Shown in pieces: positions 5,338-56,172 of a stretch of 64,000 bases of DNA. The DNA lies in IMG/VR virus record IMGVR_UViG_3300028833_002847; one strand, 5' to 3'. The position numbers were made by a program, and so were the translations under genes. This DNA is from a virus. The first letter of the stretch is position 1. Every line of letters starts with the position of its first letter. Under the pieces are notes generated by a model. It worked only from the letters and a program-made list of their open reading frames with translations, was not told where the DNA came from and did no database searches.

Positions 5338-6882
5338 CTAACCTTCTGCTTGTTCATTTCTAATTGTCTTATCTGATTTTTCACTTTCTGGTAATTCTGG
5401 TCTACCAGTTTTCTTTTCAGATTCTCCAGCTTTAGGAACTTCTTTAGCACTCATAGTTGAGGACATTTGAGGTGGAATAAATAATTCATCTAAATGCATC
5501 ATTCCATTTTCAAAAACAGCAGTAGCAATAATACTACTTTGAGTTTGTCCAAGAGCAATTTGAGGAAGAAGCTTAGAGAAACCAATTGTAGTTTGCTCTT
5601 TATAAAGCTTAGATAGTTCTTTATAATTATATCCTGTTGTTGGAAGAATTTGAACACGATACATTAAACGCTTTTTATTTTTATTAAATGGTTTTAATAA
5701 ATCTTCTGCGTATTCTTCAAACTGATAAATTAAATCAAGAACACTTGATTCATCATTTACAATAGACTTTTCTAATGCAACATTTCCATCTGCATTAAAT
5801 TGTAACTGAGAAACACCAGCTTCATTATATACACCACGTTCAACTTTTCCAAGTTGATCAACAGAACTTACATTATTGCGGTCTGCCATATCTGCAACTT
5901 CTACATCTGCAAATGTTGATAAGACCCGCACACCAATAGATTCACCAATCATGCCTACTGCATTATTGTGAAGAGTTTGTACTTCATCAGTATCAAAAAT
6001 TAAATCTCCATTTTTGTCTATTGGAAATTTTTGAATAAGAATTCTTAAAATTTGTTGCTCCATTTTTTTCTTATCTAATTCTTGCATATCTTGTAAATCC
6101 AAGAGCTTAGGAATAACTGGGAAGAAAATAGGAACATCAGAATTTCCTAAATTAAATTTAACAGCTTTTGTACAATCTAAAAGGAATCAACCCATATCAT
6201 CATTTGATGTATCTCTTGGTAAAGTTCCTTTCTTATAAGCTACATAAGCTTTTTGGAATTCTTTAGGAAACATTTTTAAAATTTTTATACGATATTCATT
6301 ATTTGACGTTAAATCGTCAAAATATTTAACATTAAACTCTATCGCGGGACGACCATTTCATTTATATCTACTACGGCAATATTTAGGTGGTAATTCTTGA
6401 AGAAAAACCGCGTCCTTTTGTTCTAATTTATAACCATAATAGCATCCATTTTTAATTACTTTTAAAGCAATTTCTGAAAAACTTTTCTTTAATCTTGAAT
6501 TTTCAAGTAAAACTGCGGCTTTAAGCCATCCTTCAATAACTTTCTCATCTTTTATTTTATTATCATATCTATTAGGTGTAATAAATCAGTCATATCTAAA
6601 TAAGGTAGCAAGATATTTACATAATCTTTGATAAATACCATTTGATCTATAAAAATAATCTGAGATTAATCTTAATGTTTCTAAATCATTTTTTTCAATA
6701 GCTCTTTCAATCTTTTCTCTATCATATTTCTTTTTGCGGGAAAGGCTATCAAAATAATCTAAATTTGAAACGACATCATCTCTTAAAATTGATTTGCCAA
6801 CTCTAATTTTATTAAAATTAGCTTTCTTTTTTGGGGTAATTATATTAAAATCTCTGGTATTTATATTTTTTGTATAAGCCAA
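5338..6882 (-). CDS. Portal protein candidate, about 515 aa, containing in-frame TGA codons (6187-6189 and 6586-6588 verified)
   Basis: Three ORF fragments (5338..6102, 6103..6585, 6586..6882) share one frame and are broken only by TGA. Lies immediately downstream of terminase. Size fits a portal. Confidence 0.5.
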
Positions 6883-6906
6883 ATTTATTTACACCCCCTG
6901 TCTATT

Positions 6907-7348: not shown

Positions 7349-9110
7349 TTAAGAAAAAAGCATTAATTTAGATAAATCTCTTTTCTTACGACGAGCACCT
7401 TTATCTTCTTCTAACTTACACCAATATAAACCATAAATCAACGCACTAAATTTATCTTTTTTAATTTTTCTTGTTGCTTGTTTAAGAATAATGTTTAAAT
7501 TTTCAGTTTCTTCAATTAAGTTTAACATTTGTTCTCTAAGAATTGAAGTCATTACATATGGTTGTAAATAAGCTGCCCTTTCTCCGGCTGTCATTCGTTT
7601 TGATTGCGCTTGTCCCGCAAGCTTATTTTTAGCAACATTTTCATCAATCAAAAATCTAATTTTACCTGCATTTAATTGACTTTGACAATAAGCATACATT
7701 TCTGTATTTAGTGGAGCATTAGCTTTCATAAGATACATTGCTTTTGGAATAGTATCTTCTGTTTCAAACTTTTTATATTTACCTTCATCATCGTTATAAA
7801 CTCCAAGATTTGGTAAAAACTCTCCTGTGTCAGGATCCGTTTGATCTGTGATTAAAAAGTCTACAAGACCTGTGCCTAAACCGTTGGCATCAATGACAGC
7901 TATTTTACAATGATATTGTTGATATATTCGTTTAATTTTAATCGCTTGTAATCCAAAGTGTTCTTCATCAAAACTATAAAGATTTACTATTTCCTTCAAA
8001 GGGACACCTGTTCGTGCTGGAGCCACTTTAATAACAATTACTTCACTAGTACAACCATGACGTCCAACGTCTACCCCAAGAACATAATAAGTAGAAGGAT
8101 TATTGCGTTTATTAGGTTCTTTCTCTGGTAGTTGAAGAGTGCGGCGCTTGTCAATTCTGTCTGGATCGAAGAATGCTCCTTCGACAGCTCCTGCTCATAG
8201 ACTTTCATATTCTCGTTCAAAACTTGCCTCATTGAATGTACCGTCCATACGAAGGTCAGCGACAAAGTTACGATTGAGTAGTCCTTCCATAACAGGAATT
8301 CGTCAAGATCCACCAAGAACAATAGCTTTGTCAGGATTTACCGCAGATTGACAAAGAATTTGAATTAATTTGTCATAACTGAAAGTATTTTTATAACCGG
8401 CCGTTGTAATATATATCTGACTTTGGTTAAGAGGCTCATTAGGATCAACAAATCCATTCACTCTTCGTTCAACGTTCATCAATGGAAGAATAACCTCGTT
8501 AAGAATATCTTGATCAATACCAACTACCTCTTCCATTAAGCCAGCTTGGAAACGCTGTCCACGAGTTTTTTCACTTGCTGCAACATTTTCAAGAGAAGAA
8601 CCATTTTTAAAAGTGTAAATAACACTGTCTCGTGTTGTACGAGTTTTAGCTTTAATAATACTTGTTTTATTATTAGTGCGAGTATCTCAAATAATTTCAT
8701 TAGCAAGTGCTGGAATTAAACGACATAATTCATCAACCTTTGCTTGAAGAATACTTGCACTTTGCTCTTTTCCTCCAGCTACCGTAAATATTCGACAACC
8801 AGGATATAAAATACACTTAATCATTAAACAAAGAACTGCTAAAAATGATTTAGAGAATGCTCGGGGAAATGTACAAAAGGTATATTTATATCTCATGACT
8901 GCCCGCAAATAAACTCTCTGATAATAAAAGAAATGAAAAGTATTATCTGGATTTAATGAACATAAATAATCTACAAAGATATCAGGATAACAACGTCAAA
9001 AAGAAATTAACTCTTCTAATCGTTCTTTATCTTGACGAATACGCTCACGATCAACAGTTTCCCGCACTTGTTTAGATTCATTATATTCTAATAAATCTTT
9101 AAGAGCCATT
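7349..9110 (-). CDS. terL: Terminase large subunit, assembled from 3 or more ORF fragments through in-frame TGA codons
   Basis: C-terminal RNaseH-like nuclease segment (IAVIDANGLGTGLVDFLIT...) in ORF 7349..8026. ATPase-like fragments at 8303..8536 and 8687..8908 share orientation. The 5' end is approximate. Confidence 0.5.
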
Positions 9111-9179
9111 GTCGTCACCACCAACTTGAGCAAATACTTGTTCAGTTTCAGAAGCAATCATATCATCTAAATTGTTAGT

Positions 9180-15850: not shown

Positions 15851-15945
15851 CACACACACGACAGGTTTGCAAGAACTTTTTTCTCCTACGCAAAGTCTAC
15901 ACAACATGACCTAAAAGAGATATGTGGAGGAATTGTGTGCACAAA
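15833..15945 (+). repeat. Copy A of the repeated ~90-110-bp leader/promoter element (GGCGAAAAWTTTTAKCACA...GTCAAGAG...GTGGAGGAATTGTGTG)
   Basis: Sequence shared with copies at 18158, 19113, 20228, 20408 and 21268. Confidence 0.5.
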
Positions 15946-16048
15946 GATTCTCGCGTCAGTTGGTGGGGAGTTGTAGTAATATATTAGTCAAGGAGAGGGA
16001 GAGAGAAAGTCAAAGGGACTTTCGCCCAATCCAAAGAGAGGAGCCACA

Positions 16049-16438
16049 ATGGCTACCACGAACAAGGTTACCCGCTTTACCGCACTGTCCACCCTCATTG
16101 AGTTCGCTAAGGCTAACGACTTTGATAACGCTGAGGTTATGGAGATTGCTGAGAAGATGCGTGACAAGCTCAAGACTCCTAGCAAGGCTGGTACTACTAC
16201 TCACACGGCTAAGAACAATGATAAGTTCTTTGATGCTCATATGAATGTGTTCGCGGATGGTGCTATCCTCACAGCTCGCGAATACGCAAACGCTATTGAT
16301 GGTTTCCCCGTGGATAATATGGGTCGTCCTAGCATCCACAAGGCTACTGCTATCCTCGTTCGTGCGGTCAATGAGGGTAAGCTGGTAAAGGTTCCTAGCG
16401 AGAAGAAGAGTGCTCCTATGAGCTACAAGCTCGCGTGA
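16049..16438 (+). CDS. GC-rich paralog family member A, 129 aa, unknown function
   Basis: About 60% aa identity to 20720..21108 and 27724..28122 (shared FPVDNMGRPS(V/I)HKATAILV...SPEKKS.PM.YKLA). About 48% GC against about 30% background. C/G-ending optimal-type codons. Confidence 0.6.
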   Translation: MATTNKVTRFTALSTLIEFAKANDFDNAEVMEIAEKMRDKLKTPSKAGTTTHTAKNNDKFFDAHMNVFADGAILTAREYANAIDGFPVDNMGRPSIHKATAILVRAVNEGKLVKVPSEKKSAPMSYKLA

Positions 16439-16520
16439 TTATCAGTCCTGAGCATGACTTAAAACTGCTCAATTCTTTTATATTAAAAAGAATAAAAAAT
16501 GAAAATTGAATAAATAAAAA

Positions 16521-16943
16521 GTGAAAATGAAAATCAAACAAAACAGATGTTCGGGGTGGGCGAAATTTTACTACAAACGCACGGAGAAGTCAAGTCTGAA
16601 AAACCTTCTTCACAAAATCTTCATAAATGAGCAGATCTCCCGCAATTGTGAAGAATCTATGAAGAGCCCAAAACTGTGCTATAATGTACTTAAGGACAAA
16701 GAGAAAGGATATGCAATGTATAACAACACTGTTTTTCTAGTAACTGTTAATCCTGAAATGTATTATGGTACTCCTTATCACTTTGCTTTTAAGAATAAAG
16801 ATAATGCTAAGAAGAAATTTGATGAACTTGTAGAAAAGCACAATCTTTATCATGATGGTAGTTATCGTGTAGCACAAAGAGATTCAGAAAGCTTGCATCA
16901 TGTGGACACTGTAGAACTTGATGAAATCTTTTATGATGATTAA
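16521..16943 (+). CDS. Hypothetical protein, 140 aa
   Basis: ORF in the track. Confidence 0.35.
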   Translation: MKMKIKQNRCSGWAKFYYKRTEKSSLKNLLHKIFINEQISRNCEESMKSPKLCYNVLKDKEKGYAMYNNTVFLVTVNPEMYYGTPYHFAFKNKDNAKKKFDELVEKHNLYHDGSYRVAQRDSESLHHVDTVELDEIFYDD

Positions 16944-17220
16944 TATGGTGGGACTTTAGTCCCATCATTCTTTTAACTAGTTGGGGATCCCAACAAAAAT
17001 GTGAAGATATTGTGAAAGACTTGACAACTAACCCGGAAATATGAGATAATATAATCATGGAACGGAGGAAGACCCGCCAAACACAACCTAGTCAAGTTGT
17101 AAAACTGACTACAGGGTTAGGAGATACCATGACTGCTATTTTTGTTATTATTATTATCATGATTATTATGACAAATAACAATAACGGTCCTTTTGGCTAT
17201 GCTTAGAAAGAAGGTTTATA

Positions 17221-17487
17221 ATGGAGCGTGAATTTTCCTGTTATCATCTTATTGGTTCTCTTACTGTACTTAAAGATAAACAAATTATTGCTATTCTTTT
17301 TGCTACAGATGCTTTTTATATTTCAGAATTTAAAGCTATTAATAAATACAAAGATTTAGTTTGGGAAATTCAAGGAGCTATGAATAATAATGTAGTATTA
17401 AACGGAGCTAAAATAAATGCAGAAACTATTCTCTATGGTAAGAAAGATGATAAAGAAGTTATCATCCGCAAACAAACATTCGAGTAA
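17221..17487 (+). CDS. Hypothetical small early protein
   Basis: ORF in the track. Confidence 0.3.
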   Translation: MEREFSCYHLIGSLTVLKDKQIIAILFATDAFYISEFKAINKYKDLVWEIQGAMNNNVVLNGAKINAETILYGKKDDKEVIIRKQTFE

Positions 17488-17587
17488 GTCGATCCCTGTG
17501 AAGATTCTGTGAAGAAAGAAAATCCTAGACAATTTGCCCAAAAGTGTAGTATAATATAATCAAGGTCAAAGAGAGAAAGGATTTCAC

Positions 17588-17797
17588 ATGAACACTCTGT
17601 ATGGTTTCCTCCTTGAAGGTGAAAATGTTGATGGTGACCTGATTAGCTCTTATGTGGAATTTGAAAATTGTGAAGATGCTACAGACGCTCTTAAACTAGC
17701 TGAGAAAGAAGCTGAAACTATCCTTAAAGATGAAGATGGTGGACATATTGATATCTTTGATGAGGATGGTAATTTTATGGTTGATGTAGAAGTTTAA
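17588..17797 (+). CDS. Hypothetical small acidic protein
   Basis: ORF preceded by TATAATATAAT...AAAGGA leader. Confidence 0.35.
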   Translation: MNTLYGFLLEGENVDGDLISSYVEFENCEDATDALKLAEKEAETILKDEDGGHIDIFDEDGNFMVDVEV

Positions 17798-17871
17798 ATA
17801 TTAGTCCTGAGCATGACAATAAAAGGCTCAACTTTTTATTTTATCGATCCCAAAAGAAAAGGAAAAAGATT

Positions 17872-18108
17872 ATGATTACTATTAAGTGCGGGAAGAGCTC
17901 CTACAATACTACTAACATTGATTCAGAAGCAACTTTTACAATTAATGATGATGCTAATCTAACAGAAGTATTTCTAGCTATTGTAAAAGCTACTCAATTT
18001 GAAGGTTATTCACTTGATAGTTGGCTTAATATTATTAATGAAATGAAAGATGAAATTGATAAGGAATATTCAATTCTTGATTTTCTATCTGATTCAGTTT
18101 ATGATTAA
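17872..18108 (+). CDS. Hypothetical small protein
   Basis: ORF with RBS AAAGGAAAAAGATT-ATG. Confidence 0.3.
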   Translation: MITIKCGKSSYNTTNIDSEATFTINDDANLTEVFLAIVKATQFEGYSLDSWLNIINEMKDEIDKEYSILDFLSDSVYD

Positions 18109-18157
18109 ATAATTTAAGAGAGTGAAGAGCTCTTCTATAATACTTTTAAGTATCTGC

Positions 18158-18262
18158 GACGGCGAAATATTTTATCACACGGCTGAGGAAATGTCAAGAG
18201 CTTCACAATATCTACACAATTAAGCAGATCTGCCCAAAATGTGAAGGAATTATGAAGATTAA
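18158..18262 (+). repeat. Copy B of the repeated leader/promoter element
   Basis: GACGGCGAAATATTTTATCACAC...ATGTCAAGAGCTTCACAATATCTACACAAT...GTGAAGGAATTATGAAG. Confidence 0.45.
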
Positions 18263-18305
18263 AATTAAGGCTTGACCGCACATAATGTAAGTAGTAATAT
18301 AATAA

Positions 18306-18506
18306 TTGTCAGTTGGTTACTACTATTGGAGATTAAACATGCTTACATCACTTGTTTTAACCTATGCTTGGTGCCTGACTGTAGTTTTTATTCTATTGCT
18401 TACTTTGTATCTTGATAACAAAAATTATTATCTTGGTGTTGGCTATTATATTATTATTGGTCTATTCTTTTTGATTATTACTGCGTGGATAAGCTACGTT
18501 AGTTAA
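18306..18506 (+). CDS. Small membrane protein, 66 aa
   Basis: Hydrophobic ORF with TATAATATAAT motif upstream. Confidence 0.3.
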   Translation: MSVGYYYWRLNMLTSLVLTYAWCLTVVFILLLTLYLDNKNYYLGVGYYIIIGLFFLIITAWISYVS

Positions 18507-18588
18507 TTCACAATTCCTTCACAATTCAAGATTGTCACTTGACAAACTCCCATCTCTTGTGTAATATAATAATTGACAGAAACAAGAG

Positions 18589-18792
18589 ATGGGAGTTACG
18601 ATGAAAGCTATGACACTCACAGAAGCTAAAGCTTATTACACTCCCATTATTCAAGCAGAGGTCAATCGTTGTAATATGCTTATTGAAAGCATTGAAGAAA
18701 CAATTGCAGAAATTGGTGAAGATGATGATATAATTCAACTTCTTAATGAAACTATTAATGAGCGTGATATTTGGGCTAGTGGATTGGAGTAA
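18589..18792 (+). CDS. Hypothetical small acidic protein
   Basis: ORF with TATAATATAAT motif upstream. Confidence 0.3.
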   Translation: MGVTMKAMTLTEAKAYYTPIIQAEVNRCNMLIESIEETIAEIGEDDDIIQLLNETINERDIWASGLE

Positions 18793-18797
18793 TAATT

Positions 18798-19019
18798 ATG
18801 TTAGTTTATATTGTAACTCTTCGGTATGAAGACTATTCTACTATCCTTGGAGTATATCATTCTTTTCCAACTGCATTTAAAGATATTTTAGAAGAACATA
18901 TTCATTGTCATGAACCTTTTACAGCTATTGATTGGAGTAACTGGAAAACAGATAAATCTCTTATTATTGAATTAGATGAATATAATGAAATTAAAATTAA
19001 ACAATATCAAGTTTGGTAA
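18798..19019 (+). CDS. Hypothetical small protein
   Basis: ORF in the track. Confidence 0.3.
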   Translation: MLVYIVTLRYEDYSTILGVYHSFPTAFKDILEEHIHCHEPFTAIDWSNWKTDKSLIIELDEYNEIKIKQYQVW

Positions 19020-19023
19020 TAAA

Positions 19024-19050
19024 AAAGAGCTTAACAGCTCTTTTTTTTTA
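19024..19050 (+). terminator. Rho-independent terminator
   Basis: AGAGCT-TAAC-AGCTCT hairpin followed by a T9 tract. Confidence 0.6.
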
Positions 19051-19112
19051 TATCTTAAAATAGAACATTTGTTCTATCGCGAGATCTTAAAACTAATACA
19101 ATGATTGATATC

Positions 19113-19200
19113 AGTGGCGGCGAAAATTTTAGCACATCGCGCAACAGAAGTCAAATGAAGATTTTGTGAAAACACAAAGTGAACACAATTGTCCCAATAG
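19113..19200 (+). repeat. Copy C of the repeated leader/promoter element
   Basis: GTGGCGGCGAAAATTTTAGCACATCGCG...AGTCAAATGAAG...GTGAACACAATTGTCCC. Confidence 0.45.
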
Positions 19201-19370
19201 TCCAGAAAGTAAGATAGTTTATACGGGTCAAATAAAGATTTTAATTATCAAAGCAAAAAACGATCGATCTACCTGCGGTTTCACAAAGTCTACACAATTA
19301 AAGAAAGTCGTTGACTTTCACACTAAAGAGCGTATACTAATAGCTGTCCAAAGGGAAACAACGAAAGGAA

Positions 19371-20081
19371 ATGGACATGCGTAAGGTTTTCGCTATTCTT
19401 GACATTGAGACTGTTACTGATGCTCGTTTGGCTTTTGATATTGCATGGATTGTTTGCGATTCTAAGGGTAACATCCTTGAGCGTTATAACGCTCTTGTGA
19501 GTGAAGTTGTTAATAGTCCTTTTGGTATGGCTTTCTTGCGTCGTGATTCTTTCATTAAAAATAAGGCTCAAATGTATATTGATGCTATTAATTTTAATGG
19601 TATTGATATTAAGTCCTTTGAGGATATCATGCAAGATTTTAATAATATCTCTGCTCGTTACAATGCTAAAACTGTTATGTGTGCTTATAATGCTAAGTTT
19701 GATTACAGTGTACTTAATGATAACGCTAGTTATATTTATGGCTATGGTGAGCAATTCTTTAATGATAATGTTGAAATTGTTGATATCATGACTATGGCAT
19801 TAGCTACTATTTGCGATACTAATAAATATATTCTTTGGTGCATTCAGAATGGCATGGTTACAGAAAAGGGTAATGTAAAGACTAATGCACAAACTGTTTA
19901 TGCTTACATGCTTGATGATATTAATTTTGTAGAAGCACATCACGCATTAGAAGATTGCGAAATTGAAAAGGATATATATTTTAAGGCTCGTAAGCGTAAA
20001 CAAAAGCAGCATAAGCAATTTGCAATGCCTATGTTTCATTGCAAGGAATGGAAAAAAGTACAATCTCGCAATGTAAAATAG
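19371..20081 (+). CDS. DEDDh-type 3'-5' exonuclease (DnaQ-like)
   Basis: Exo I ILDIETV, Exo II AYNAKFDYSVL and Exo III HHALEDCEI motifs. Confidence 0.65.
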   Translation: MDMRKVFAILDIETVTDARLAFDIAWIVCDSKGNILERYNALVSEVVNSPFGMAFLRRDSFIKNKAQMYIDAINFNGIDIKSFEDIMQDFNNISARYNAKTVMCAYNAKFDYSVLNDNASYIYGYGEQFFNDNVEIVDIMTMALATICDTNKYILWCIQNGMVTEKGNVKTNAQTVYAYMLDDINFVEAHHALEDCEIEKDIYFKARKRKQKQHKQFAMPMFHCKEWKKVQSRNVK

Positions 20082-20082
20082 C

Positions 20083-20116
20083 AATAAAAAAAGGGTAGGA
20101 TGTAAAAGTCCTACCC
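20083..20116 (+). terminator. Hairpin terminator candidate
   Basis: GGGTAGGA...TCCTACCC stem after the stop codon. Weak U-tract. Confidence 0.3.
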
Positions 20117-20227
20117 TAAATAGTATTAACCAAGAGAAGAAAGTATAATGTGCGGGAATTGTGTTGACTTTGTGAATTAACTGATTCTGGCTTGACAATA
20201 ATTTGTTCATATGAGATAATTATAATG

Positions 20228-20330
20228 GGGGAGAGATCGACCTGGACGAAAAATTATAACACATTCGCGAGGAAAAGTCAAGAGAAAATTTCAATCTACA
20301 CAGAATCTCCACATTTGCCCAGATCTGCCG
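20228..20330 (+). repeat. Copy D of the repeated leader/promoter element
   Basis: GACGAAAAATTATAACACA...AAAAGTCAAGAGAAAATTTCAATCTACACAGAATCTCCACATTTGCCCAGATCTGCCGCACATC. Confidence 0.45.
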
Positions 20331-20407
20331 CACATCAAAAATTTAATTAAAAAGCCCAGGACGATCGCATCAATATTTGAATAATTTCATATCAAAGTTT
20401 AAACATA

Positions 20408-20490
20408 TCAAAATATCAACGAGGACGAAAATTATACCACGTCCGCATGAGACTTGTCAAGAAAAATTTTTCTTCACATTTCCCGCACAA
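20408..20490 (+). repeat. Copy E of the repeated leader/promoter element
   Basis: GACGAAAATTATACCACG...TTGTCAAGAAAAATTTTTCTTCACATTTCCCGCACAAATC. Confidence 0.45.
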
Positions 20491-20719
20491 ATCAATCCTG
20501 AAACTAGTTCAAGATAAAAAGCTTAATAGTTCAAGATAAAAAGTTAATTAGTTCAATTTCAGACCAAAAAGTTCAATTCAATCAATTGTGGAGGAATTGT
20601 GTGGAAGGGAATTTCTCGTGCCTGTTGGGTCGAATCCATGATAATATATAGTTGTCCGAAGGGGAAAGAGAAAATTCCGAAAGGCGGAATGGTTCCCCTA
20701 GACAGAAAGAGGTGCCCTA

Positions 20720-21108
20720 TGGCTACCAAGTTCAACGTCACTCGCAAGCAGGCTCTTGAGTCCATCATTGAGTTTGCGAAGGCTAACGAGTACGATAACA
20801 CGGATGTGATGGATGTGCTCAACAACATGCTTTCTAAGCTTCAGACTACCTCTAAGCGTTCGGGTGAGACGGCAGCTCACAAGACTAACGCGAATATGCT
20901 TCAGAAGTATCTGAATCTCTTCGCGGATGGTGCTGTTCTTACGTCTCGTGAGTTTGCTAATAACGCGGATGGTTTCCCTGTTGATAACATGGGGCGTCCC
21001 TCTGTTCACAAGGCCACGGCCATTTTGGTGCAGGGCGTGAATGATGGAGTTCTTGTGAAGGTTTCGCCTGAAAAGAAGTCCAAGCCCATGGGGTACAAGT
21101 TGGCCTAG
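20720..21108 (+). CDS. GC-rich paralog family member B, 129 aa
   Basis: Paralog of 16049..16438 and 27724..28122. Codon-optimised and GC-rich. Confidence 0.6.
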
Positions 21109-21267
21109 TCAATGGAGTTTGGGGAGTCTCCACAAAATCCCCACATATTAAATTTTGAATGGTCTGGCATCAAAAGTCAGACCATTTTCTTTCAAATTTT
21201 ATTAGAACACGTGTTTGGGCGGAAGATCTCAGCTAGTATCAAGATTTTAGTTAAATGGTTGATCGGT

Positions 21268-21372
21268 GTTGGCGAAAATTTTATCATATGTGCGACCAGT
21301 TGTCAAGAAGAAATTTTCAATTCACAGAGTCTACATAAGTTATCCTAATTGTGCAGGTTTTGTGAAGTATCA
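21268..21372 (+). repeat. Copy F of the repeated leader/promoter element
   Basis: GGCGAAAATTTTATCATATG...GTTGTCAAGAAGAAATTTTCAATTCACAGAGTCTACATAAG...TTTTGTGAAG. Confidence 0.45.
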
Positions 21373-21384
21373 AGATTACAACTA

Positions 21385-21625
21385 GATTGGGCTCTGTTGG
21401 GTGTATAATAAAGTCACAGACGAGGCACAGGGGATGATAGTCCTACGCAAGCGTGAACCGGGTGGTCTGGTTAATGGGCATTGTGCCGGCAGGTCAAGAC
21501 AGAAAATAGCTACAGTCAGGTCTAAAGTCTGCGTGAGCGAAATTTTTGGCAGCTGCATAGGCAAATTTTCTATCGAATGGCAAGGTTATAGGCGATTCAA
21601 CCATAGGCCCAAAATATAGGCAAAA
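21385..21625 (+). ncRNA. Candidate GC-rich structured ncRNA (alternatively a 72-aa GC-rich ORF)
   Basis: A TATAAT at about 21406 is followed by a 55% GC segment unlike the local background. No RBS for ORF 21401..21619. Many internal complementary stretches. Confidence 0.3.
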
Positions 21626-21639
21626 ATAATAAAATTTAC

Positions 21640-21830
21640 TTGACAACTGATAGATTTTTATGATATAATAAAAATAATATGTCAATTTTAGTTGAAAATC
21701 AAGAATTTTTAACAGAAAAATGAAAATTATACTTGACAACTGACTAATTTTCATGATAAAATGAAAGTTTATACCTAATTTTGTGCGCATTTATAACAAA
21801 AAAGAGCCCTTTCGGACTCTTTCTAGTGTT
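21640..21830 (+). promoter_or_regulatory. Two tandem sigma70/sigmaA-type promoters (TTGACA-18-TATAAT at 21640-21669; TTGACA-18-TGnTAAAAT at 21733-21763). They drive short non-coding transcripts ending at a hairpin near 21800-21825
   Basis: Consensus hexamers with 18-bp spacers. No ORF downstream. AAGAGCCCTTTCGGACTCTT hairpin shared with the convergent gene. Confidence 0.45.
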
Positions 21831-21846
21831 TTTATTAATATTTTTA

Positions 21847-22245
21847 CTAAACTGCTTGATAACGGAATGGATCGTTCTTCTTCTCCTTCTCAAGACGCTG
21901 AATCAGGCCAAGCTCAACACCAAGCTTGAGAACTGCGGTTGCCTTAGGGGCAGAAGGAATCTCATCAAAGAGCTCCTTAATCTCACCAGCAGTCTTAGGC
22001 TCAACCAGCGCAGGAAGAATAAGCTCTACAAGCTTCTCATTCTCCTCACGCTTCTTGGAGTTACCAGTGGTACGAGAGCGGTTAAGCTTCTGATACATGT
22101 TACCAAGGACATTGAGGAGGTCCTCAACAGTAGCGTCTTGATTCTCTGCTTGAACAGCTTCGACAAACTCATCCTGATACATCTCGACGTAGTTACGAAC
22201 GATAGCAATTGCAGCCTTCTGAGTGATAGCGTTCTTAGTAGTCAT
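21847..22245 (-). CDS. GC-rich codon-optimised protein, 132 aa, unknown function, on the opposite strand
   Basis: Complete ORF. Its leader (reverse strand) carries the same TATTATATAT...GAAAGGGAGAGAG motif as the GC-rich paralogs. Confidence 0.5.
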   Translation of the reverse strand: MTTKNAITQKAAIAIVRNYVEMYQDEFVEAVQAENQDATVEDLLNVLGNMYQKLNRSRTTGNSKKREENEKLVELILPALVEPKTAGEIKELFDEIPSAPKATAVLKLGVELGLIQRLEKEKKNDPFRYQAV

Positions 22246-22477
22246 ACTAACCTTCTTTCTTTGATTGGGAGTCAGACTCCTTTTGTCTGATTACTCTCTC
22301 CCTTTCGTTATATATATAATATCATGATTTAGACCCGGTTGTATACGAAAAACTTTGAAAGCTGGTTAAAAAAAATTGTTTCAGATTGTACAGAGAATTG
22401 CTATGCAGGTGTTAAAATGGAGATGCACTCCCCACCAAATACACACCATCAAATTTTTATCCCCAACTAAAACATAT

Positions 22478-22560
22478 TATCAAATCTTAAACATTTAATT
22501 AAAACATCTTGTCAAATCTTAAATTTTAATTAAAATATATTATTAATGTTTAGAAATTTT
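22478..22560. repeat. Tandem direct repeats, about 29 bp x2 (AAAACATMTTRTCAAATCTTAAAYWTTTAATT)
   Basis: Two adjacent near-identical units in an ORF-free AT-rich stretch. Confidence 0.4.
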
Positions 22561-22812
22561 AATTCTACTACACTTCTTAATATTAACTATAATATTTAAT
22601 TTCTATTATCGTCTTTTAAAAGTTTCTTCTATGTAATCTTTTTCTAATATACTTTCTAATTAACTATATTTATCTGTTACTTCGTCTAATGCAATCTTTA
22701 ATTTATCTATCGCATCTCCTAGCTTTATAATTTGTTCAATCTCAAGTTTCTTCATAATCTATAGGCTCATCTCCTATACATATACTAATAATACATAATA
22801 TAAGAATTAATG

Positions 22813-23037
22813 CTATAAGCCACACAATTTCACCTCTGGAATATTTTCTAAAACTTCCTTATAAAACTCCATTATACAAATTTTAGCAATTACCTCATCA
22901 ATATTTTTTTGTTCTTCTTCTGTTAATCTATATAGCAAAATATCTTCTATGTTTCTTTCATAAATATGATAATGATTCTTTATTATCATTTTACCTTGTT
23001 TAATATAACATCTACAATTCTTTTTAAAATTTTCCAT
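22813..23037 (-). CDS. Hypothetical small protein
   Basis: ORF in the track. Confidence 0.3.
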   Translation of the reverse strand: MENFKKNCRCYIKQGKMIIKNHYHIYERNIEDILLYRLTEEEQKNIDEVIAKICIMEFYKEVLENIPEVKLCGL

Positions 23038-23066
23038 TTTTAAAATTCATTTTTCAAAATCGAAAT

Positions 23067-23387
23067 TTAAAAATCATTTTCTATAATCATTAATGGATTT
23101 TTCAAATTCAAATTTGCTAATTCTTTAATAAATTGAATATTTAATTTGCCCTCTATCATATAATGAATTAATTTCTTTTCCAAAAATTTCCACTTTTTAT
23201 CTAAAGAACGAATAATATCCCAATATACCTCTTCATCAAAATCATCTTCATACATATAATATAAAAACTTAATATATTCATTTATATAATTACCAAGCTG
23301 ACTTCTTTTCATCACAAATAATTTAGGATATATAGGTAAAGGATTATATCTTTCCCCATACATTTTATAAAATTCAACCTCAGTCAT
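23067..23387 (-). CDS. Hypothetical protein, 106 aa
   Basis: ORF in the track. Confidence 0.3.
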   Translation of the reverse strand: MTEVEFYKMYGERYNPLPIYPKLFVMKRSQLGNYINEYIKFLYYMYEDDFDEEVYWDIIRSLDKKWKFLEKKLIHYMIEGKLNIQFIKELANLNLKNPLMIIENDF

Positions 23388-23464
23388 ATTTCTCCTTTCA
23401 AAAAAGTTGACTATATTCTTTTGTATTCTTTTATATATTATTTTATATTCTATATAGTCTTTCT

Positions 23465-23590
23465 CTGTCCAAATTTACTAAACCCTTTGACCAATTTGGA
23501 CATACCCTTTGACTTTTTTGGACATACCCCTTGGTCCAAATTTGTCAAACCCTTTGACTTTTTTGGACATACCTATTTTATAGGCATTTT
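23465..23590. repeat. Iteron-like repeats: TTGGACATACC x3 interleaved with AAACCCTTTGAC x3
   Basis: Seen directly. Intergenic, next to the minus-strand module. Candidate replication origin or operator. Confidence 0.45.
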
Positions 23591-23949
23591 CCGCACTTTC
23601 TCCATTTCCAAATTCATTTTTGGAATTTCATAAAAGTCTCAATATCCTTCTTCATTCTTAACCAAATAACCCCTCTCCTTCAACACTCTCTTAGCCTTTC
23701 TAAATGTACTTACACTAATACCAAATTCATTATAGGCTGCAACAGGAGAAACCCAAAACTCATAGCCTTCCATATTCTTTGCAAAATATAGTCAAACTTC
23801 AAATTGAGCAGGAGTTAAATCTCTTAAAGCATATTTAATAGACCTTAAATTAATAGCTGCATAATAATTATCTACTAATCTACCATCGCAATCTTCTTTA
23901 TTAATCACAACATATTCCTGATTTGGATTTGAATCAAATTTTACATTAG

Positions 23950-24375
23950 TTAACATTCCCAATACCGTTCTAGCAACATTTTAACACCATCTTGCTTATT
24001 TTTGTCAATGATTGCCCGCACATCTAAATCTTCATATCTATTTTCTTTATCTTCACTTACTATCTCTTGGTTTAACTTATAAATCGTATTATAATCAACA
24101 TGAATTAAATTATCTTCATCTTTTATAAACCAACCATATTCAATTAATTTTTCAATATACTTTTCATATTCTTTAATATCTAAACCTAAATAATTTGCAA
24201 TATCTTTACCATCTAAATAAATCTCTTCTTGACCACTCTCATATAAATAACTTTCTAATATCATATAAAATAAAACTATAGAATACATATTAATATCACT
24301 AAATGTTCTTAACATAATATAAACAACCAATAGTTGTCCATCTTGCAAATCTTGTTTACTTAAATCAATTTCCAC
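23950..24375 (-). CDS. Hypothetical protein, 141 aa
   Basis: ORF ending at TAA. Confidence 0.3.
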   Translation of the reverse strand: MEIDLSKQDLQDGQLLVVYIMLRTFSDINMYSIVLFYMILESYLYESGQEEIYLDGKDIANYLGLDIKEYEKYIEKLIEYGWFIKDEDNLIHVDYNTIYKLNQEIVSEDKENRYEDLDVRAIIDKNKQDGVKMLLERYWEC

Positions 24376-24770
24376 TATAGTTCTCCTTTATCTACTGCAT
24401 CCAAAAGCTCTAGAAATTCATAATCAACTTCTAATTCTCCTTCATCATTTCTAACTAACCATCCTTCTTCCTGTAACATACCCACTATATCATCATACAT
24501 CTCAGCAGGACTTTTACCATTTCTTCCACTAATTCCTTGACCTATATATAAAGTTCTAATTTCATCTTCCTTCATTCCAAAAATAAAAGAAAACAAAATT
24601 CTATAGGCATCATAACCAGAACTATAATCATTCATCAATCTAATTACACTTCTAGCAACATTAGCATTCTTTTCTTTCTCTCTAGCTTTCATAAGCAATT
24701 GTTCATATCTATCTTGCTCCGCAAAAGCTTTCTCTAAACTTTGCATAACTTCTTTAAATTCATCAGTCAT
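24375..24770 (-). CDS. Hypothetical protein, 131 aa
   Basis: ORF in the track. Confidence 0.3.
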   Translation of the reverse strand: MTDEFKEVMQSLEKAFAEQDRYEQLLMKAREKEKNANVARSVIRLMNDYSSGYDAYRILFSFIFGMKEDEIRTLYIGQGISGRNGKSPAEMYDDIVGMLQEEGWLVRNDEGELEVDYEFLELLDAVDKGEL

Positions 24771-25080
24771 AAATATATCCTCCGCGGGACGATGCTATAT
24801 TTCACTTTTAGCAACTTGAATATTTCATTCTTATACTTCTTCAGTTCTAATTTGATATTTATCAAGAACCGTTTTATCCTTAACAATTATTCATTCATTT
24901 TCATCTAAACTCTTATATAATTTAACACTAGCAACTCTAGCTTCTAATTGATATATATCTAAAATATCATTAACTGCTTGCTCTTTCCGCACATATTTAC
25001 CTAAAAAATCTTTATTATTATATAAAGAATACATTTTCATAATAATCTCCTAAAAGAAAGGGGAGTATAAAACTCCCCTT

Positions 25081-25686
25081 CTACCGCACATTTACTCTAT
25101 TTACTATATTTTGTTTGCAACCCTTCCATTCACTGTGGTCTTTAATGGTTGCTCTAATCCTTATCTTGCTACCTTCTTCAATCTCCTGTTCACTATTGGT
25201 AAACCAAACAAAGATATTACCATCTTCATCTACAAACTCAAATCTATGTCCAATACCGTAATAACCTTCAAACTCACTAATCCGCAACACTTCAACATTA
25301 AACTCAAGTCTTTGCTTGATTTCACCAACCCACTGGCTATTCTTATACATCTCTTGAATAGCCTTCTTTTTAGCTTCTTTTTCTGCTACCTTCTTATCCC
25401 AATCTTCTTTACTCATAAAAGCATTAATTTCAATAACACCATGAGAAAAATTGAAATGTTTAGTTTCAAGAAGCTTTACTTCAAAACGGCCAATTTTACC
25501 AACATATTCCTGCTGCCAAAATTGAATATATCCTCCACGAGTACCTTCCCAGCCACCTATATCTTGACAACTTCCCTCTTCAAGATATTTAGAAAGAATA
25601 CCAAACTGCTTATTGGAAAGTCCCCTCTCTCCGCAATAACCATTTTCATCTACAAGAGACTCAACGATTTTCTCTGCAAAAGTCAT
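25081..25686 (-). CDS. Hypothetical protein, 201 aa
   Basis: ORF with RBS, preceded by a terminator-like GGGGAGT...ACTCCCC hairpin at 25060-25080. Confidence 0.35.
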   Translation of the reverse strand: MTFAEKIVESLVDENGYCGERGLSNKQFGILSKYLEEGSCQDIGGWEGTRGGYIQFWQQEYVGKIGRFEVKLLETKHFNFSHGVIEINAFMSKEDWDKKVAEKEAKKKAIQEMYKNSQWVGEIKQRLEFNVEVLRISEFEGYYGIGHRFEFVDEDGNIFVWFTNSEQEIEEGSKIRIRATIKDHSEWKGCKQNIVNRVNVR

Positions 25687-25841
25687 TTGATATCCTTTCT
25701 CTCTTTCCTTAATTATATTATACTATAAATAAAGAACAATTGCCTAGATATCAATTTTATCAAGATATTCAAAATAACAACTTGCAAAAATAATAAACAA
25801 AATTAAACCAAGAAGGCACAGTCCGATAAAACCAAGCATAT

Positions 25842-26024
25842 TTAAACTCCCATCTTCTGCTTAATATATTGAATATTATTCAACTGTTTCTTATCAATCT
25901 TTCCAATAACAGTGTCTATATCATCTTTTCTCTTTATCAAAATAACTTTATTCTTATCTTCCAAACTCTCTTCAGCTACAACATCAAAACAATCATCTTC
26001 ACTATAAACAGTAAAAAGAATCAT
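25842..26024 (-). CDS. Hypothetical small protein
   Basis: ORF in the track. Confidence 0.25.
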   Translation of the reverse strand: MILFTVYSEDDCFDVVAEESLEDKNKVILIKRKDDIDTVIGKIDKKQLNNIQYIKQKMGV

Positions 26025-26026
26025 CT

Positions 26027-26350
26027 TTAATACTCCTGTTCAATAAGCTCCGCGATTTCACTTAAATTCTTTTGATGTTCAACAACCTTATAGGCAATTT
26101 TTACAATTTCACTTTTATAACTCTTATAAAAGCTTACAAAGATTTGACCGTCAATATTTCCAAAACCCCGCACATAATAATCTTCATTAGCTTTAAAACC
26201 AATATTCTCCATCTCTTGGTTGAAAAACATCTTGTAATAATTTCCAGCATTATAAGTAACTTGCGATTCAAGCTCCATTTCACTAATTTCAAAATGGGTT
26301 TTACCCTCATACTGCTTTAAAAGAATATTAGCCATAATTAAACCTGCCAA
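26027..26350 (-). CDS. Hypothetical protein, 107 aa
   Basis: ORF in the track. Confidence 0.3.
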   Translation of the reverse strand: MAGLIMANILLKQYEGKTHFEISEMELESQVTYNAGNYYKMFFNQEMENIGFKANEDYYVRGFGNIDGQIFVSFYKSYKSEIVKIAYKVVEHQKNLSEIAELIEQEY

Positions 26351-26685
26351 TCTCCAACAATAGTGCGGATTATCGTTTCATCTCCGTATTCATCTTTATA
26401 ACTAACCATCGGCAACTTTTCAAGAATTCGTCGCCATGTCCCGCAAGATACTCCTTTCTTATATTGTCTTGCAATAGCATCAAGAGCTTTAATATAAGCA
26501 TTTATCTCACAAAAAACTTCAATATCTTTAATATCTCCAAAATAAATAATATAAAGATATTGAGCATTAGCAAAGATTTCTCTTGCAGCAAAAGAATGTT
26601 TAAGAACTTTAACCGCAGTTTTTTCAAACTGGTCCTCAGCTTCAAAATGCTTCTTACCAAAGAAAAACTTCATGTTCTTATCCAT
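26338..26685 (-). CDS. Hypothetical protein, 115 aa
   Basis: ORF in the track. Confidence 0.3.
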   Translation of the reverse strand: MDKNMKFFFGKKHFEAEDQFEKTAVKVLKHSFAAREIFANAQYLYIIYFGDIKDIEVFCEINAYIKALDAIARQYKKGVSCGTWRRILEKLPMVSYKDEYGDETIIRTIVGDWQV

Positions 26686-26843
26686 TACTTTTTCCTTTCT
26701 CTTACTTTCTTATTATAAGTATATCAGAAATATCTTCCAATTGTCTAAAAAATTTTTCCTCAATTCTAATTTTTATTTTTGACAATCTTCTAAAAGATAT
26801 TTTATAATATTATCCAATAGGCAAAAGAAAGGAGTTATTCCTT

Positions 26844-27593
26844 ATGATATATATAACTGGAGATTGCCACGGAGAAGTTCTTCAAAGATTTAGTTATAAT
26901 AAGCATCCATTTCTTAAAAATTTAACCGCAAATGATACTATCTTTGTTTTAGGAGATATTGGATTATATTGGCCTAATTATGAGAAAGAAACTGAATATC
27001 AATTAACTAATATTAACAAACCTTGGAAAACAATATTTATCGCAGGTAATCATGATAATTATGATTTTATAGAAACTCTACCAATAGTTCAACCAAACTT
27101 TTTAATTTCTGGAACTATTAGACAAGATAAACAATTTTATTGGATAGATAAATCTTGTATTTTAAAAATAGATAATAAAATAATACTCTGCATAGCTGGA
27201 GCGAAATCTCACGATTCTAAATATATATTTGAAAAAGAAGAAAAATCCTTTATAAAAATAGCAAAAAGAAGAAATTTACCGTATAGAATAAATCATATAA
27301 CATGGTGGAACCAAGAGGAAATAGATATAAAGGATGTGCGGGCAACCCTTAAAAATTATGGTTCAAACAAAGTTAACTATATCATGTCACACGATGCTCC
27401 CGCACACTTCAATAATATAGCTAAAAAAATAGATATATATAATGATTATGAAGATAATGAAGGAGAGCTTTTTCTTGAAGAGTTAGATCAAACATTAGAC
27501 TTCGACTATTGGTATCACGGACATTATCATTTCGAAGATTATATTTACGAAAATCATGTGTGTGTTTATCATTCTATTTTACCAGTTAAATAA
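26844..27593 (+). CDS. Calcineurin-like metallophosphoesterase
   Basis: GDCHG ... GDIG ... GNHD motifs. RBS AAAGGAG. Confidence 0.6.
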   Translation: MIYITGDCHGEVLQRFSYNKHPFLKNLTANDTIFVLGDIGLYWPNYEKETEYQLTNINKPWKTIFIAGNHDNYDFIETLPIVQPNFLISGTIRQDKQFYWIDKSCILKIDNKIILCIAGAKSHDSKYIFEKEEKSFIKIAKRRNLPYRINHITWWNQEEIDIKDVRATLKNYGSNKVNYIMSHDAPAHFNNIAKKIDIYNDYEDNEGELFLEELDQTLDFDYWYHGHYHFEDYIYENHVCVYHSILPVK

Positions 27594-27723
27594 AAATAAT
27601 TTATCAACTGAATAAAATTTCTTGTTCCCAACTGTTCAATTTTCATTATATAATATAATTGTCCAAAGGGGAGAGGACAAAACACAAAAAGTGTTTGACC
27701 CGTAGGACACGAAAGGAGCCATT

Positions 27724-28122
27724 ATGGCTAAGAAGTTTAATGTTACCCGCAAGGACGCTCTCAATCAGATTATCGTTTTCGCTCGTGAGAATGGTTATGA
27801 CAACGCAGATGTTCTTGAGGTTGTTGATAACATGCTCTCTAAGCTCCAGACTACTACTAAGAATACTGGTGAGACCGTAGCCCATCGTCAGAATGCTAAG
27901 CTCTTGGAGAAGAATCTTCATCTTTTCGATGGTGAAGACGTAGCTCTTACTGCTCGTGAGTTTGCTACTATTGCAAAGGATTTTCCGGTTGACAATACTG
28001 GACGTCCTTCTGTGCATAAGGCTACTGCAATTCTTGTGCAAGGAATTAACGATGGTATTCTAACCAAGGTGGCTCCTGAGAAGAAGTCTCACCCTATGCG
28101 TTACGCTCTTAAGCAGGACTAG
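27724..28122 (+). CDS. GC-rich paralog family member C, 132 aa
   Basis: Paralog of 16049..16438 and 20720..21108. Confidence 0.6.
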   Translation: MAKKFNVTRKDALNQIIVFARENGYDNADVLEVVDNMLSKLQTTTKNTGETVAHRQNAKLLEKNLHLFDGEDVALTAREFATIAKDFPVDNTGRPSVHKATAILVQGINDGILTKVAPEKKSHPMRYALKQD

Positions 28123-28227
28123 TATTTATTAAGAGAAAGGATTTTATGCATCCTCCTTGATATTTTGTTTAGTCCTATTGGCTTTCAACTAAAGGAGCAA
28201 TGATATGCATCCTCCTTGATGATTTTT

Positions 28228-56097: not shown

Positions 56098-56172
56098 TTC
56101 CTCATGGTGTAATTGGCAACACAATGGATTCTGGTTCCATTATTTCACGTTCGAGTCGTGATGAGGAAGCCA
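56098..56172 (+). tRNA. tRNA-Gln (anticodon CUG), CCA encoded
   Basis: Cloverleaf built by hand: acceptor TTCCTCA/TGAGGAA, D GTGT/ACAC, anticodon stem ATGGA/TCCAT with loop TTCTGGT, T-arm TCACG-TTCGAGT-CGTGA. Confidence 0.6.

Follow-up and report, generated by a model that had tools for sequence, protein, structure and literature searches.

SPO1 TF1 is an HU-like protein and phi29 p6 has a fold of its own; together with the SPO1 host-takeover module they are the described systems that come closest to the four small-protein genes analysed here, paralogs A to D, which are located on a 64,000-nucleotide stretch of DNA (the window) from IMG/VR virus record IMGVR_UViG_3300028833_002847. As in these systems, of which the host-takeover module is mentioned in PMC6873191 and PMC10531801, small proteins are encoded in a presumably early region of a large phage of the Gram-positive type, and each gene has strong expression signals of its own. 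With p6 and TF1 the proteins further share a predicted nucleic-acid-binding fold and, presumably, large amounts, the likeness being one of functional analogy only. There is, however, no relationship in sequence or family: the present proteins combine a predicted winged helix with an N-terminal helical hairpin, occur as two to four or more ancient paralogs per genome, and are distinguished by an extreme codon purge and a dedicated conserved leader RNA.

In Firmicutes, STAB-SD (cryIIIA) and the SP82 polypurine element are 5' stabilisers of mRNA (reference list of PMC3997798), and in the hbs mRNA a structured 5' untranslated region (UTR) with a strong Shine-Dalgarno (SD) sequence acts as stabiliser (PMC5737220). 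The leaders of the present family similarly carry a purine-rich, SD-like tract (GAAGGGGAGAGG) and a stem-loop upstream of the real SD, and they probably precede, as in the case of hbs, a gene for an abundant DNA-binding protein. They differ from the Firmicute stabilisers in that the predicted leader is a new sequence and structure motif that has no match in Rfam. With regard to decoding, the phage resembles T4, T5 and cyanophages, i.e. phages with codon compensation or tRNA-based evasion of anticodon nucleases (for background see PMC10264068 and PMC11555353), as it has a large tRNA array with Lys, Glu and Gln tRNAs matching one gene set. In contrast to codon-compensating phages, however, the match covers four genes and not the late or bulk genes, it is inverted for most other amino acids, and bulk codon usage opposes the phage's own Lys, Glu and Gln tRNAs. 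Finally, the phage shares several traits with the large TGA-recoded gut phages (the 'Agate' clade etc.), with recoding of late genes, described in the searched passages of bioRxiv 10.1101/2021.08.26.457843, namely in-frame TGA codons that are present in structural, reverse transcriptase, sortase and tail-fibre-like genes and absent from the early block, a tRNA with UCA anticodon, a genome of ~150 kb and a ruminant or gut source; the same passages make no mention of a codon-purged family or of the leader.

The reading that we favour, and to which we give about even chances, is that A to D are four separate units of high output, each for a nucleic-acid-binding protein made early and in abundance, the codon purge reflecting translational selection and the leader serving as stabiliser or ribosome-loader. 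According to this reading, a TGA-recoded phage of ~150 kb infecting a Gram-positive bacterium of the gut or rumen would make very large amounts of ~130-residue, phage-specific proteins from the standard-code (early) part of its genome, and each gene would be driven by its own putative promoter of the sigma-70/sigma-A type. The purge would increase speed and yield of translation, with NNG codons (for Lys, Glu and Gln) and NNY codons (N, any nucleotide; Y, pyrimidine) constituting the optimal set of the phage-host system, partly via phage tRNAs that have C at anticodon position 34 (C34; U34 correspondingly), whereas the 5' stem-loop and the purine tract may stabilise the mRNA or load ribosomes, by analogy with the Firmicute elements. 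The proteins may act stoichiometrically on DNA, i.e. they may coat or organise the phage genome, or occupy early promoters with tandem boxes and thereby reprogramme transcription, and the acidic paralog D may serve as modulator or partner.

Codon usage, ancestry and predicted fold of the family

The original prediction, made from the letters of the window without database searches, placed three paralogs of about 60% identity at 16049, 20720 and 27724 and regarded the genes at 15500 and 21847 (minus strand) as similar in style. The three open reading frames (ORFs) are present with 129, 129 and 132 amino acids, the start of B being one base off (20719), and the measured identities are 60% for A-B, 67% for B-C and 47% for A-C. 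The gene at 21847 is not only similar in style: D aligns to B and C over its full length with 28-35% identity (tblastn E ~1e-7) and keeps the invariant K-A-T-A...L...G...E-K-K...P...Y positions of A-C. Judged by sequence, D is a true distant paralog, the divergent acidic member, and A-D are one ancient paralogous family. The gene at 15500, on the other hand, lies outside the class and was ruled out as a member, with a GC content at third codon positions (GC3) of 0.34-0.38, a fraction of third-position A (A3) of 0.29, no cassette and no homology. Paralog C is identical to a database protein (P0010) encoded on a 148 kb contig, and a megablast search of 50,697 phage records revealed no record near-identical to the region.

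The four genes have a GC content of 0.44-0.49 as compared to 31.3% for the window, close to the anticipated values of about 48% and 30%, and their GC3 ranges from 0.41 to 0.59, whereas most other ORFs of the window have values of 0.05-0.25. Conditioned on amino-acid content, 187 A-ending codons are expected in the family, but only 29 are observed (z = -17.4), and each of A-D alone shows a depletion with z between -8 and -9. At third positions the family uses A in 5.6%, C in 21.8%, G in 28.6% and T in 44.0% of the cases, the corresponding values for 49 bulk genes being 33.0%, 6.5%, 9.4% and 51.1%. Not one of the 53 Lys codons of the family is AAA, the codons TTA, AGA, ATA, TCA and CGA are absent altogether, ACA, CCA and CTA occur once each, and GAG makes up 89% of the Glu codons (21% in bulk genes); bulk usage of the phage, in turn, amounts to 70% AAA, 79% GAA and 80% CAA. 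T-ending codons (GCT, GGT, CGT, CCT, ACT, GTT, CTT) still dominate in the family, and in the two-codon pyrimidine (NNY) boxes the share of C-ending codons rises to 0.47 from 0.13 in the bulk, which is a classic signature of translational selection. Thus, the codon and GC3 statistics of the individual genes set the family clearly apart from the bulk, although the 'strong preference for C/G-ending codons' that had been proposed describes the pattern only in part: the bias is far beyond chance, but it is a specific loss of third-position A, with T being retained.

As the bias is found on the sense strand of genes in both orientations, it acts on the transcript or on decoding and not on duplex DNA. 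A likelihood scan of all ORFs identified no members of this codon class in the window beyond the four genes. Next in A3 depletion are the genes for an RNA ligase (z = -7.6) and a TROVE/Ro-like protein (z = -6.5), followed by the one for an exonuclease-like protein (z = -5.7), and a TGA-free gene of 347 amino acids (phrog_4088, function unknown) that lies beside TGA-containing genes has z = -4.9. The graded bias in the same direction in TGA-free genes outside the family (ligase, TROVE and the gene of 347 amino acids) fits general translational selection.

Synonymous divergence between the paralogs is saturated (dS 1.3-2.2, not computable for B-C), nonsynonymous divergence (dN) is 0.26-0.80, and the ratio dN/dS does not reach 1. 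Both the multi-copy state and the codon bias are retained by relatives in at least six other phage lineages. Homologs with 66-76% identity have an A3 of 0.00-0.09, one sub-lineage showing a partly relaxed bias (A3 0.12-0.18), and members with only 37-46% identity from phages of 40-51% GC (L018, L026, L027, L028) are still biased, so that the bias is retained in homolog-bearing phage contigs spanning 30-51% GC. The L018 member, e.g., has a GC3 of 0.68 and no AAA among 11 Lys codons, as compared to a GC3 of 0.23-0.43 in neighbouring genes. Distant phages carry two, three and at least four copies, some on the opposite strand, and in each distant contig the family members rank among the most A3-depleted genes. 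Saturated synonymous sites and conservation of the bias across lineages together imply that the bias is kept by selection and does not stem from recent transfer. Two scans of bacterial genomes (185,579 species, one genome each) found no relatives, ruling out a copy of a host gene, which the original prediction had named as an outcome that would overturn it, and supporting the view that the paralogs form a family confined to phages, the codon usage of which is under strong selection.

The family had been described as having no recognisable function, with a DNA-binding role as one suggestion. Indeed, neither the four proteins nor 50 superfamily members have a significant match in Pfam or PHROG, but a structure predicted for the sequence of paralog B is a confident winged helix, in which three helices, one of them the recognition helix, form a bundle and a beta-hairpin the subsequent wing. 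This fold lends support to the suggestion. The predicted architecture comprises an N-terminal helical hairpin, a flexible linker and the C-terminal winged helix, and the family has the invariant motifs GRPSxHKATA..L and EKKSxP..Y. Paralogs A-C are basic, with isoelectric points (pI) of 8.9-9.4 that are compatible with nucleic-acid binding, while D is acidic (5.35). On the basis of this model the proteins are probably nucleic-acid-binding. They differ from MarR, ArsR, Fur and Z-alpha winged helices in the N-terminal hairpin and linker, in their own motifs and in that no Pfam family reaches threshold; for MarR, ArsR, TrmB and other winged helix-turn-helix families of Pfam there are only scattered single sub-threshold matches, none at gathering score, and a sequence-profile search of the PDB gave E >= 0.3 at best (AdcR, E = 0.3). 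Z-alpha domains (ADAR1, E3L, PKZ) are marked by a wing of the type Pro-Pro-x-Trp and by a recognition helix with conserved Tyr and Asn/Lys; as the family does not show this combination, a Z-DNA/Z-RNA-binding domain was rejected. A histone-like protein of the HU/IHF or phi29 p6 type was rejected as well, given a different predicted fold and no match in Pfam or PHROG. A profile search of 1.84 billion cluster representatives yielded 112 matches at E <= 1e-3, nearly all of 115-150 amino acids and aligned end to end, for which the cluster look-up returned no names. The nearest viral structures (BFVD) are uncharacterised gut-phage proteins of equal size, with three paralogs in one phage.

The promoter and leader cassette

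One common architecture is found 5' of A-D and likewise 5' of all homologs. The -35 element is TTGACA in distant relatives and has decayed to TTCTCGTGCC-like sequences in the present phage, the extended -10 element is TGnTAATAT, and some 7 nucleotides (nt) downstream of it the leader begins with GUCC-R-AAGGGGAGAGG, the purine tract GAAGGGGAGAGG likewise starting ~7 nt past the -10 element. At the 3' end of the cassette an SD, either GAAAGGAG or a variant thereof, precedes AUG-GCU, and a small hairpin often encloses the AUG; in C the start codon sits in the palindrome AGCCAT T ATGGCT. When the whole window was searched with an nhmmer profile of the cassette, full-length matches (E 1e-17 to 1e-24) were obtained only at the four family genes (for A at 15943-16054, E = 5e-18), and elsewhere the profile gave partial promotor matches only. 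Hence the shared leader that had been noticed before is confirmed for all of A-D, as part of a promoter and leader cassette. The cassette is also found 5' of an unrelated gene in one distant phage. Rfam contains no match to the leader, either at gathering threshold or at E <= 1, and outside the clade the leader pattern has two chance matches in IMG/VR, both of which come without promoter, hairpin and SD.

The leaders fold as nested helices, i.e. P1 (GUCC/GGAC), P2 (GGGG/CCCC) and an inner helix P3, with folding z-scores of about -1.5 to -4.7, most of them around -3 (mononucleotide shuffles). P3 is represented by 8-10 unrelated helix sequences at one position, all capped by AAAGG or a near variant. 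Since this variable helix cannot be aligned by sequence, its covariation was assessed by folding each sequence separately and by comparing the pairing of each 5' arm with its own 3' arm and with arms of other leaders. On average 5.89 of 6 pairs form with the own arm and 2.36 of 6 with foreign arms, i.e. the inner helix shows strong covariation. To our knowledge, nothing comparable to this conserved AAAGG pentaloop, carried by a helix that covaries freely, has been described. Moreover, a conserved, stable stem-loop and an SD-like purine tract lie near the predicted 5' end of the transcript, which is the sequence arrangement of a 5' stabiliser.

Intrinsic terminators follow B and D (Table 1), whereas 3' of A and C there are only weaker candidates. 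Two exact copies of ATGCATCCTCCTTGAT are located 3' of paralog C (28146-28161 and 28205-28220, plus strand), with 0.03 expected by chance. Judging from its letters, the anti-SD-like CCUCC in this repeat could pair with the purine tracts or the SD of the leaders, and the arrangement recalls the pairing of 5'- and 3'-UTR in the hbs mRNA (PMC5737220).

By sequence, the promoters of A and B are members of a larger group within the TGA-free block, the promoters of which appear to be enhanced by tandem TGTGRAG boxes. For 7 of the 14 tandem boxes in the window -35 and -10 elements were identified, the box ending 3-14 nt upstream of the -35 element, and related as well as distant family-carrying phages have the same boxes. 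The family proteins may be regarded as candidate binders of the tandem box, which is something that we infer only. Several box promoters, namely those on the minus strand with boxes at 16608-16625, 18201-18218, 20296-20313 and 20472-20489, either face antisense to genes of the plus strand or point into the gap of 640 bp that precedes B, and a minus-strand terminator is found at 20117-20092. Together, the antisense orientation of these promoters and this terminator make small or antisense RNAs possible.

Proposed translational selection, phage tRNAs and alternative explanations

Several observations weigh against four high-output units shaped by translational selection. Firstly, both 'abundant' and 'early' are properties that we infer. 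Secondly, the SD sequences are only of moderate strength, ranking 22, 24, 29 and 47 among 81 genes, i.e. in the middle to upper range, and the idea that every expression signal is maximal was dropped. Thirdly, 32 distinct family sequences end with TAG in 20, TAA in 8 and TGA in 4 cases, as compared to 43 TAA and 11 TAG (20% TAG) in bulk genes, and a preference of TAG over TAA is the reverse of the usual rule for highly expressed genes. The stop codon of paralog A, in addition, is TGA (16436-16438), although TGA is a sense codon elsewhere in the phage, and readthrough would add 8 residues before a TAA; this does not fit neatly. Fourthly, a mild shortage of A/T runs that goes beyond codon usage hints at an extra constraint on the mRNA. 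Finally, A-ending codons are avoided even where the phage has a cognate U34 tRNA, i.e. simple tuning of demand to the supply of phage tRNAs fails.

If our reading is nevertheless true, it defines a so far unannotated superfamily of phage proteins (~112 clusters at 50% identity) that are small throughout and mostly multi-copy, together with a new conserved 5' leader RNA motif and a new upstream promoter box. Among the early functions of this group of TGA-recoded gut and rumen phages, the three together would mark the one that is probably expressed most strongly.

The last of the opposing points concerns the tRNA array, which had been predicted to encode C34 isoacceptors for exactly the preferred codons. 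Within the window, ARAGORN and Rfam identified Lys-CUU, Glu-CUC, Gln-CUG, Thr-CGU and Ser-CGA of the isoacceptors listed, but not Leu-CAA, which occurs only in a relative. The claim further left out the U34 tRNAs of the array, i.e. those for Val, Thr, Pro, Ala, Gly, Leu (UAG), Arg (UCU) and Ile (UAU), as well as the UGA-reading tRNA. An extra tRNA with CAT anticodon (62700-62771, plus strand; 38 bits in Rfam, missed by ARAGORN) brings the array to 26 genes. A Watson-Crick cognate phage tRNA is available for 0.92 of the Lys, Glu and Gln codons of the family and 0.23 of those of the bulk, and in NNY boxes for 0.47 and 0.13, respectively. In 4- and 6-codon boxes, however, the relation is inverted (0.19 versus 0.30), the family avoiding GTA, ACA, CCA, GCA, GGA, CTA, AGA and ATA, which are the codons of the phage U34 tRNAs. 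Thus, the 'exact' fit holds for Lys, Glu and Gln, and the array as a whole is not tailored to the family.

Yet these three amino acids allow for an alternative in which phage tRNAs gate expression: if the host is short of Lys-CUU, Glu-CUC and Gln-CUG, the family would be translated well only once the C34 tRNAs of the phage have accumulated, and the array would set timing and level of expression, much as late genes with TGA recoding depend on the UGA-reading tRNA. For Lys, Glu and Gln the phage has C34 tRNAs only, and G is the last base in 92% of the respective codons in the family, but in 23% of those in the bulk. The C34 set is clade-specific, since the distant relatives L014, L015 and L016 carry Lys-UUU, Glu-UUC and Gln-UUG whereas the present clade has only the C34 forms. 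Moreover, an orthologous Arg tRNA at the same position of the array has the anticodon UCU here (60798-60874) and CCU in the close relative L020 (8079-8155), demonstrating that wobble switching occurs in the clade, and tRNA-dependent decoding of TGA is already in use. An anticodon switch is demonstrated for this Arg tRNA only, as the C34 Lys and Glu tRNAs are 55-68% identical to the distant U34 tRNAs and not clearly orthologous (Gln 76%). Besides the avoidance of codons read by phage U34 tRNAs in the larger codon boxes, the location in the TGA-free block and the promoters of early class suggest that expression precedes tRNA build-up, and the sub-lineage with relaxed bias retains the same C34 tRNAs. 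In addition, the members in L026-L028 are biased, while L014-L016, phages in which the family was not looked for, have U34 tRNAs for Lys, Glu and Gln, i.e. the bias may not need C34 at all. We therefore regard gating by phage tRNAs as unlikely. Irrespective of this, the locus is a clean natural case of intragenomic codon partitioning, with AAA at 0 of 53 in four genes and 70% in the bulk in a phage whose Lys, Glu and Gln tRNAs are exclusively C34. The system makes it testable whether phage tRNAs serve particular gene sets, be it via tuning of expression or via evasion of tRNA-targeting defence.

Anticodon nucleases attack U34 tRNAs, especially Lys-UUU, Glu-UUC and Gln-UUG. Lacking NNA codons (AAA 0 of 53), the family mRNAs might form an escape channel from such defence that needs no U34 tRNAs and that would also evade ribosome-dependent mRNA interferases cutting at A-rich codons. 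This is very unlikely in our estimation, as is the extended version, in which a U34-independent decoding channel, in use under attack by anticodon nucleases or toxins, would consist of the family, the clade-specific C34-only Lys, Glu and Gln tRNAs and the genes for RNA repair (RNA ligase, TROVE). The purge of A-ending codons does span every codon box, even those with a phage U34 tRNA, the RNA ligase and TROVE/Ro-like genes are next in A3 depletion, paralog C lies between phosphoesterase and RNA ligase in conserved synteny, the phage carries a ROOL RNA and 26 tRNAs, and there are documented cases of phage tRNAs escaping anticodon nucleases (PMC10264068, PMC11555353). However, ~95% of the genes stay rich in AAA, GAA and CAA and would fail under attack, ordinary translational selection with C34 and G34 host tRNAs gives an equal pattern, and reading of T-ending codons in 4-codon boxes without U34 depends on the host. 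If there were a U34-independent channel, the choice of synonymous codons would itself be an anti-defence trait, and the winged-helix proteins would be first-line effectors needed under attack.

About equally improbable is selection at the level of the mRNA, in which an A-poor coding sequence and the 5' stem-loop would prolong mRNA life by removing A/U-rich endonuclease sites, candidate nucleases being of the RNase Y or E type or a shut-off nuclease of the phage. Runs of A/T of at least 5 nt are depleted in the family (10 versus 17.3 +/- 2.5 in synonymous shuffles, P = 0.004) and not in the bulk (z ~0), the shift from TAA to TAG stops is not explicable by tRNAs, and the 5' leader is structured. 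On the other hand, third-position T is hardly lower than in the bulk (44% versus 51%), and A is plentiful at the first two codon positions (there are 53 AAG codons) as well as in the leader, which is rich in purines; this implies that A or A/U content is not avoided as such and that the effect is specific for position 3.

A non-selective origin of GC-rich islands by recent horizontal gene transfer, GC-biased gene conversion or transcription-linked mutation bias, which could be envisaged for a multi-copy family with 44-49% GC in a 31% GC genome, was rejected as extremely improbable, because no homolog exists in the 185,579 species genomes, synonymous sites between paralogs are saturated, the bias is conserved across many phage lineages differing in GC, strand-symmetric conversion would lower A and T alike whereas here A falls six-fold and T is nearly unchanged, and the A-rich leaders contradict a transcription-linked loss of A.

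Recoding, neighbouring genes and further elements

Table 1. Positions of the family genes, their control elements and other features of the window (CDS, coding sequence; MFE, minimum free energy)
Feature	Position	Strand	Details
Paralog A CDS	16049-16438	+	129 amino acids, pI 9.4, GC 0.49, A3 0.04, AAA 0/14 Lys, stop TGA
Paralog B CDS	20719-21108	+	129 amino acids, pI 9.4, GC 0.49, A3 0.02, AAA 0/13 Lys, stop TAG
Paralog C CDS	27724-28122	+	132 amino acids, pI 8.9, GC 0.44, A3 0.08, AAA 0/13 Lys, stop TAG
Paralog D CDS	21847-22245	-	132 amino acids, pI 5.35, GC 0.47, A3 0.08, AAA 0/13 Lys, stop TAG
A putative control region	15923-16048	+	-35-like TTCTCGCGTC, -10 TAATAT, structured leader, SD GAGAGGAG
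A tandem box	15923-15940	+	TGTGGAG..TGTG
A leader helices (predicted)			P1 GGA/UCC, P2 GGG/CCC, P3 GAAAGUC/GACUUUC, AAAGG loop; MFE fold z = -3.8
B putative control region	20587-20718	+	TTTCTCGTGCC, extended -10 TGATAATAT, leader, SD; nhmmer E = 1e-24
B tandem box	20587-20604	+	TGTGGAGGAATTGTGTGG
B leader helices (predicted)			P1 GUC/GAC, P2 GGGGAA/UUCCCC, P3 AUUCCG/CGGAAU, AAAGG loop
C putative promoter and leader	27615-27723	+	-10 TATAAT, SD GAAAGGAG; nhmmer E = 4e-23
C leader helices (predicted)			P1 GUCC/GGAC, P2 GGG/CCC, P3 AAACAC/GUGUUU
D putative promoter and leader	22246-22351	-	extended -10 TGATATTAT; nhmmer E = 1e-17
D leader helices (predicted)			P2 GGGAG/CUCCC, P3 UCAGAC/GUCUGA, AAAAGGA loop
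Intrinsic terminator after B	21157-21195	+	11-12 bp GC-containing stem, then U run; fold of 21100-21200
Intrinsic terminator after D	21797-21824	-	AAAGAGUCC GAAA GGGCUCUUUUUUGUU; fold of 21730-21855
Tandem TGTGRAG-N4-TGTGRAG boxes	16608-21367	both	14 boxes, all inside the interval; 0.94 expected in window
Recoded ORFs	51204-54920, 46117-48420, 48840-49952, 37724-38524	+	
Recoded ORFs	7352-9166, 5341-6888	-	
tRNA with UCA anticodon	57191-57286		long variable arm
tRNA array	56098-63810	+	26 genes; ARAGORN and Rfam; ends within window
tRNA-Gln-CUG	56098-56172	+	sole phage Gln tRNA
tRNA-Lys-CUU	57648-57723	+	sole phage Lys tRNA
tRNA-Glu-CUC	62619-62694	+	sole phage Glu tRNA

When TGA is read as sense, ORFs fuse into proteins of 1239, 768, 605, 516, 371 and 267 amino acids with 2-8 internal TGA each. 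With these in-frame TGA codons in many genes, probably late or accessory ones, and the UGA-reading tRNA, the phage is stop-recoded (code 4-like). The block of ~13-35 kb that includes the family has no credible in-frame TGA. Sortase and LPXTG-pilin genes, SD sequences and canonical promoters (TTGACA/TATAAT) are indirect signs of a Gram-positive host, and the sample names indicate ruminant gut. The sortase gene (37724-38527, plus strand) contains three in-frame TGA codons, and a SpaA-type pilin of 602 amino acids with an LPXTG anchor is encoded just past the end of the window (L012, 1712-3520); the two together suggest a Gram-positive host and, possibly, phage-directed surface pili. A collagen-like G-x-y repeat (GEKGDTGATGPQGLTGPKGDKGDTGAKGDTGATGPQGEPG) is present in a protein of 1229 amino acids encoded at 51231-54923 (plus strand, 8 in-frame TGA), which is probably a tail fibre.

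A probable diversity-generating retroelement (DGR) spans 46117-49955. The C-terminal part of its 768-residue target (~48230-48430) is repeated at ~48525-48700 as template/variable repeat pair, adjoined by a reverse transcriptase with a YMDD motif (48840-49952, 6 in-frame TGA). The DGR repeats (48.2-48.8 kb), the tRNA genes, the ROOL RNA and antisense ORFs are GC-rich spots that were considered as family-like and found to be unrelated. The ROOL RNA is full-length and lies within the tRNA array (61217-61864, plus strand; Rfam RF03087, 297.6 bits versus a gathering score of 99). Among the distant relatives, L014 also carries a transfer-messenger RNA (tmRNA) and L015 an amber-reading tRNA with CUA anticodon.

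Paralog C is flanked by a calcineurin-type phosphoesterase and the RNA ligase, with conserved synteny. The RNA-maintenance set of the phage (26844-27593, 29594-30565, 38605-39423 and 41089-42540) comprises two calcineurin-type phosphoesterases, the RNA ligase (PF09414) and the TROVE/Ro-like protein. At 30803-33214 (plus strand) a protein of 803 amino acids is encoded whose orthologs have the shoulder domain of major vault protein (PF11978). It shares 42-45% identity with proteins from the 'huge phage' records LR756500, LR756501 and LR756503 (462 kb, 735 kb).

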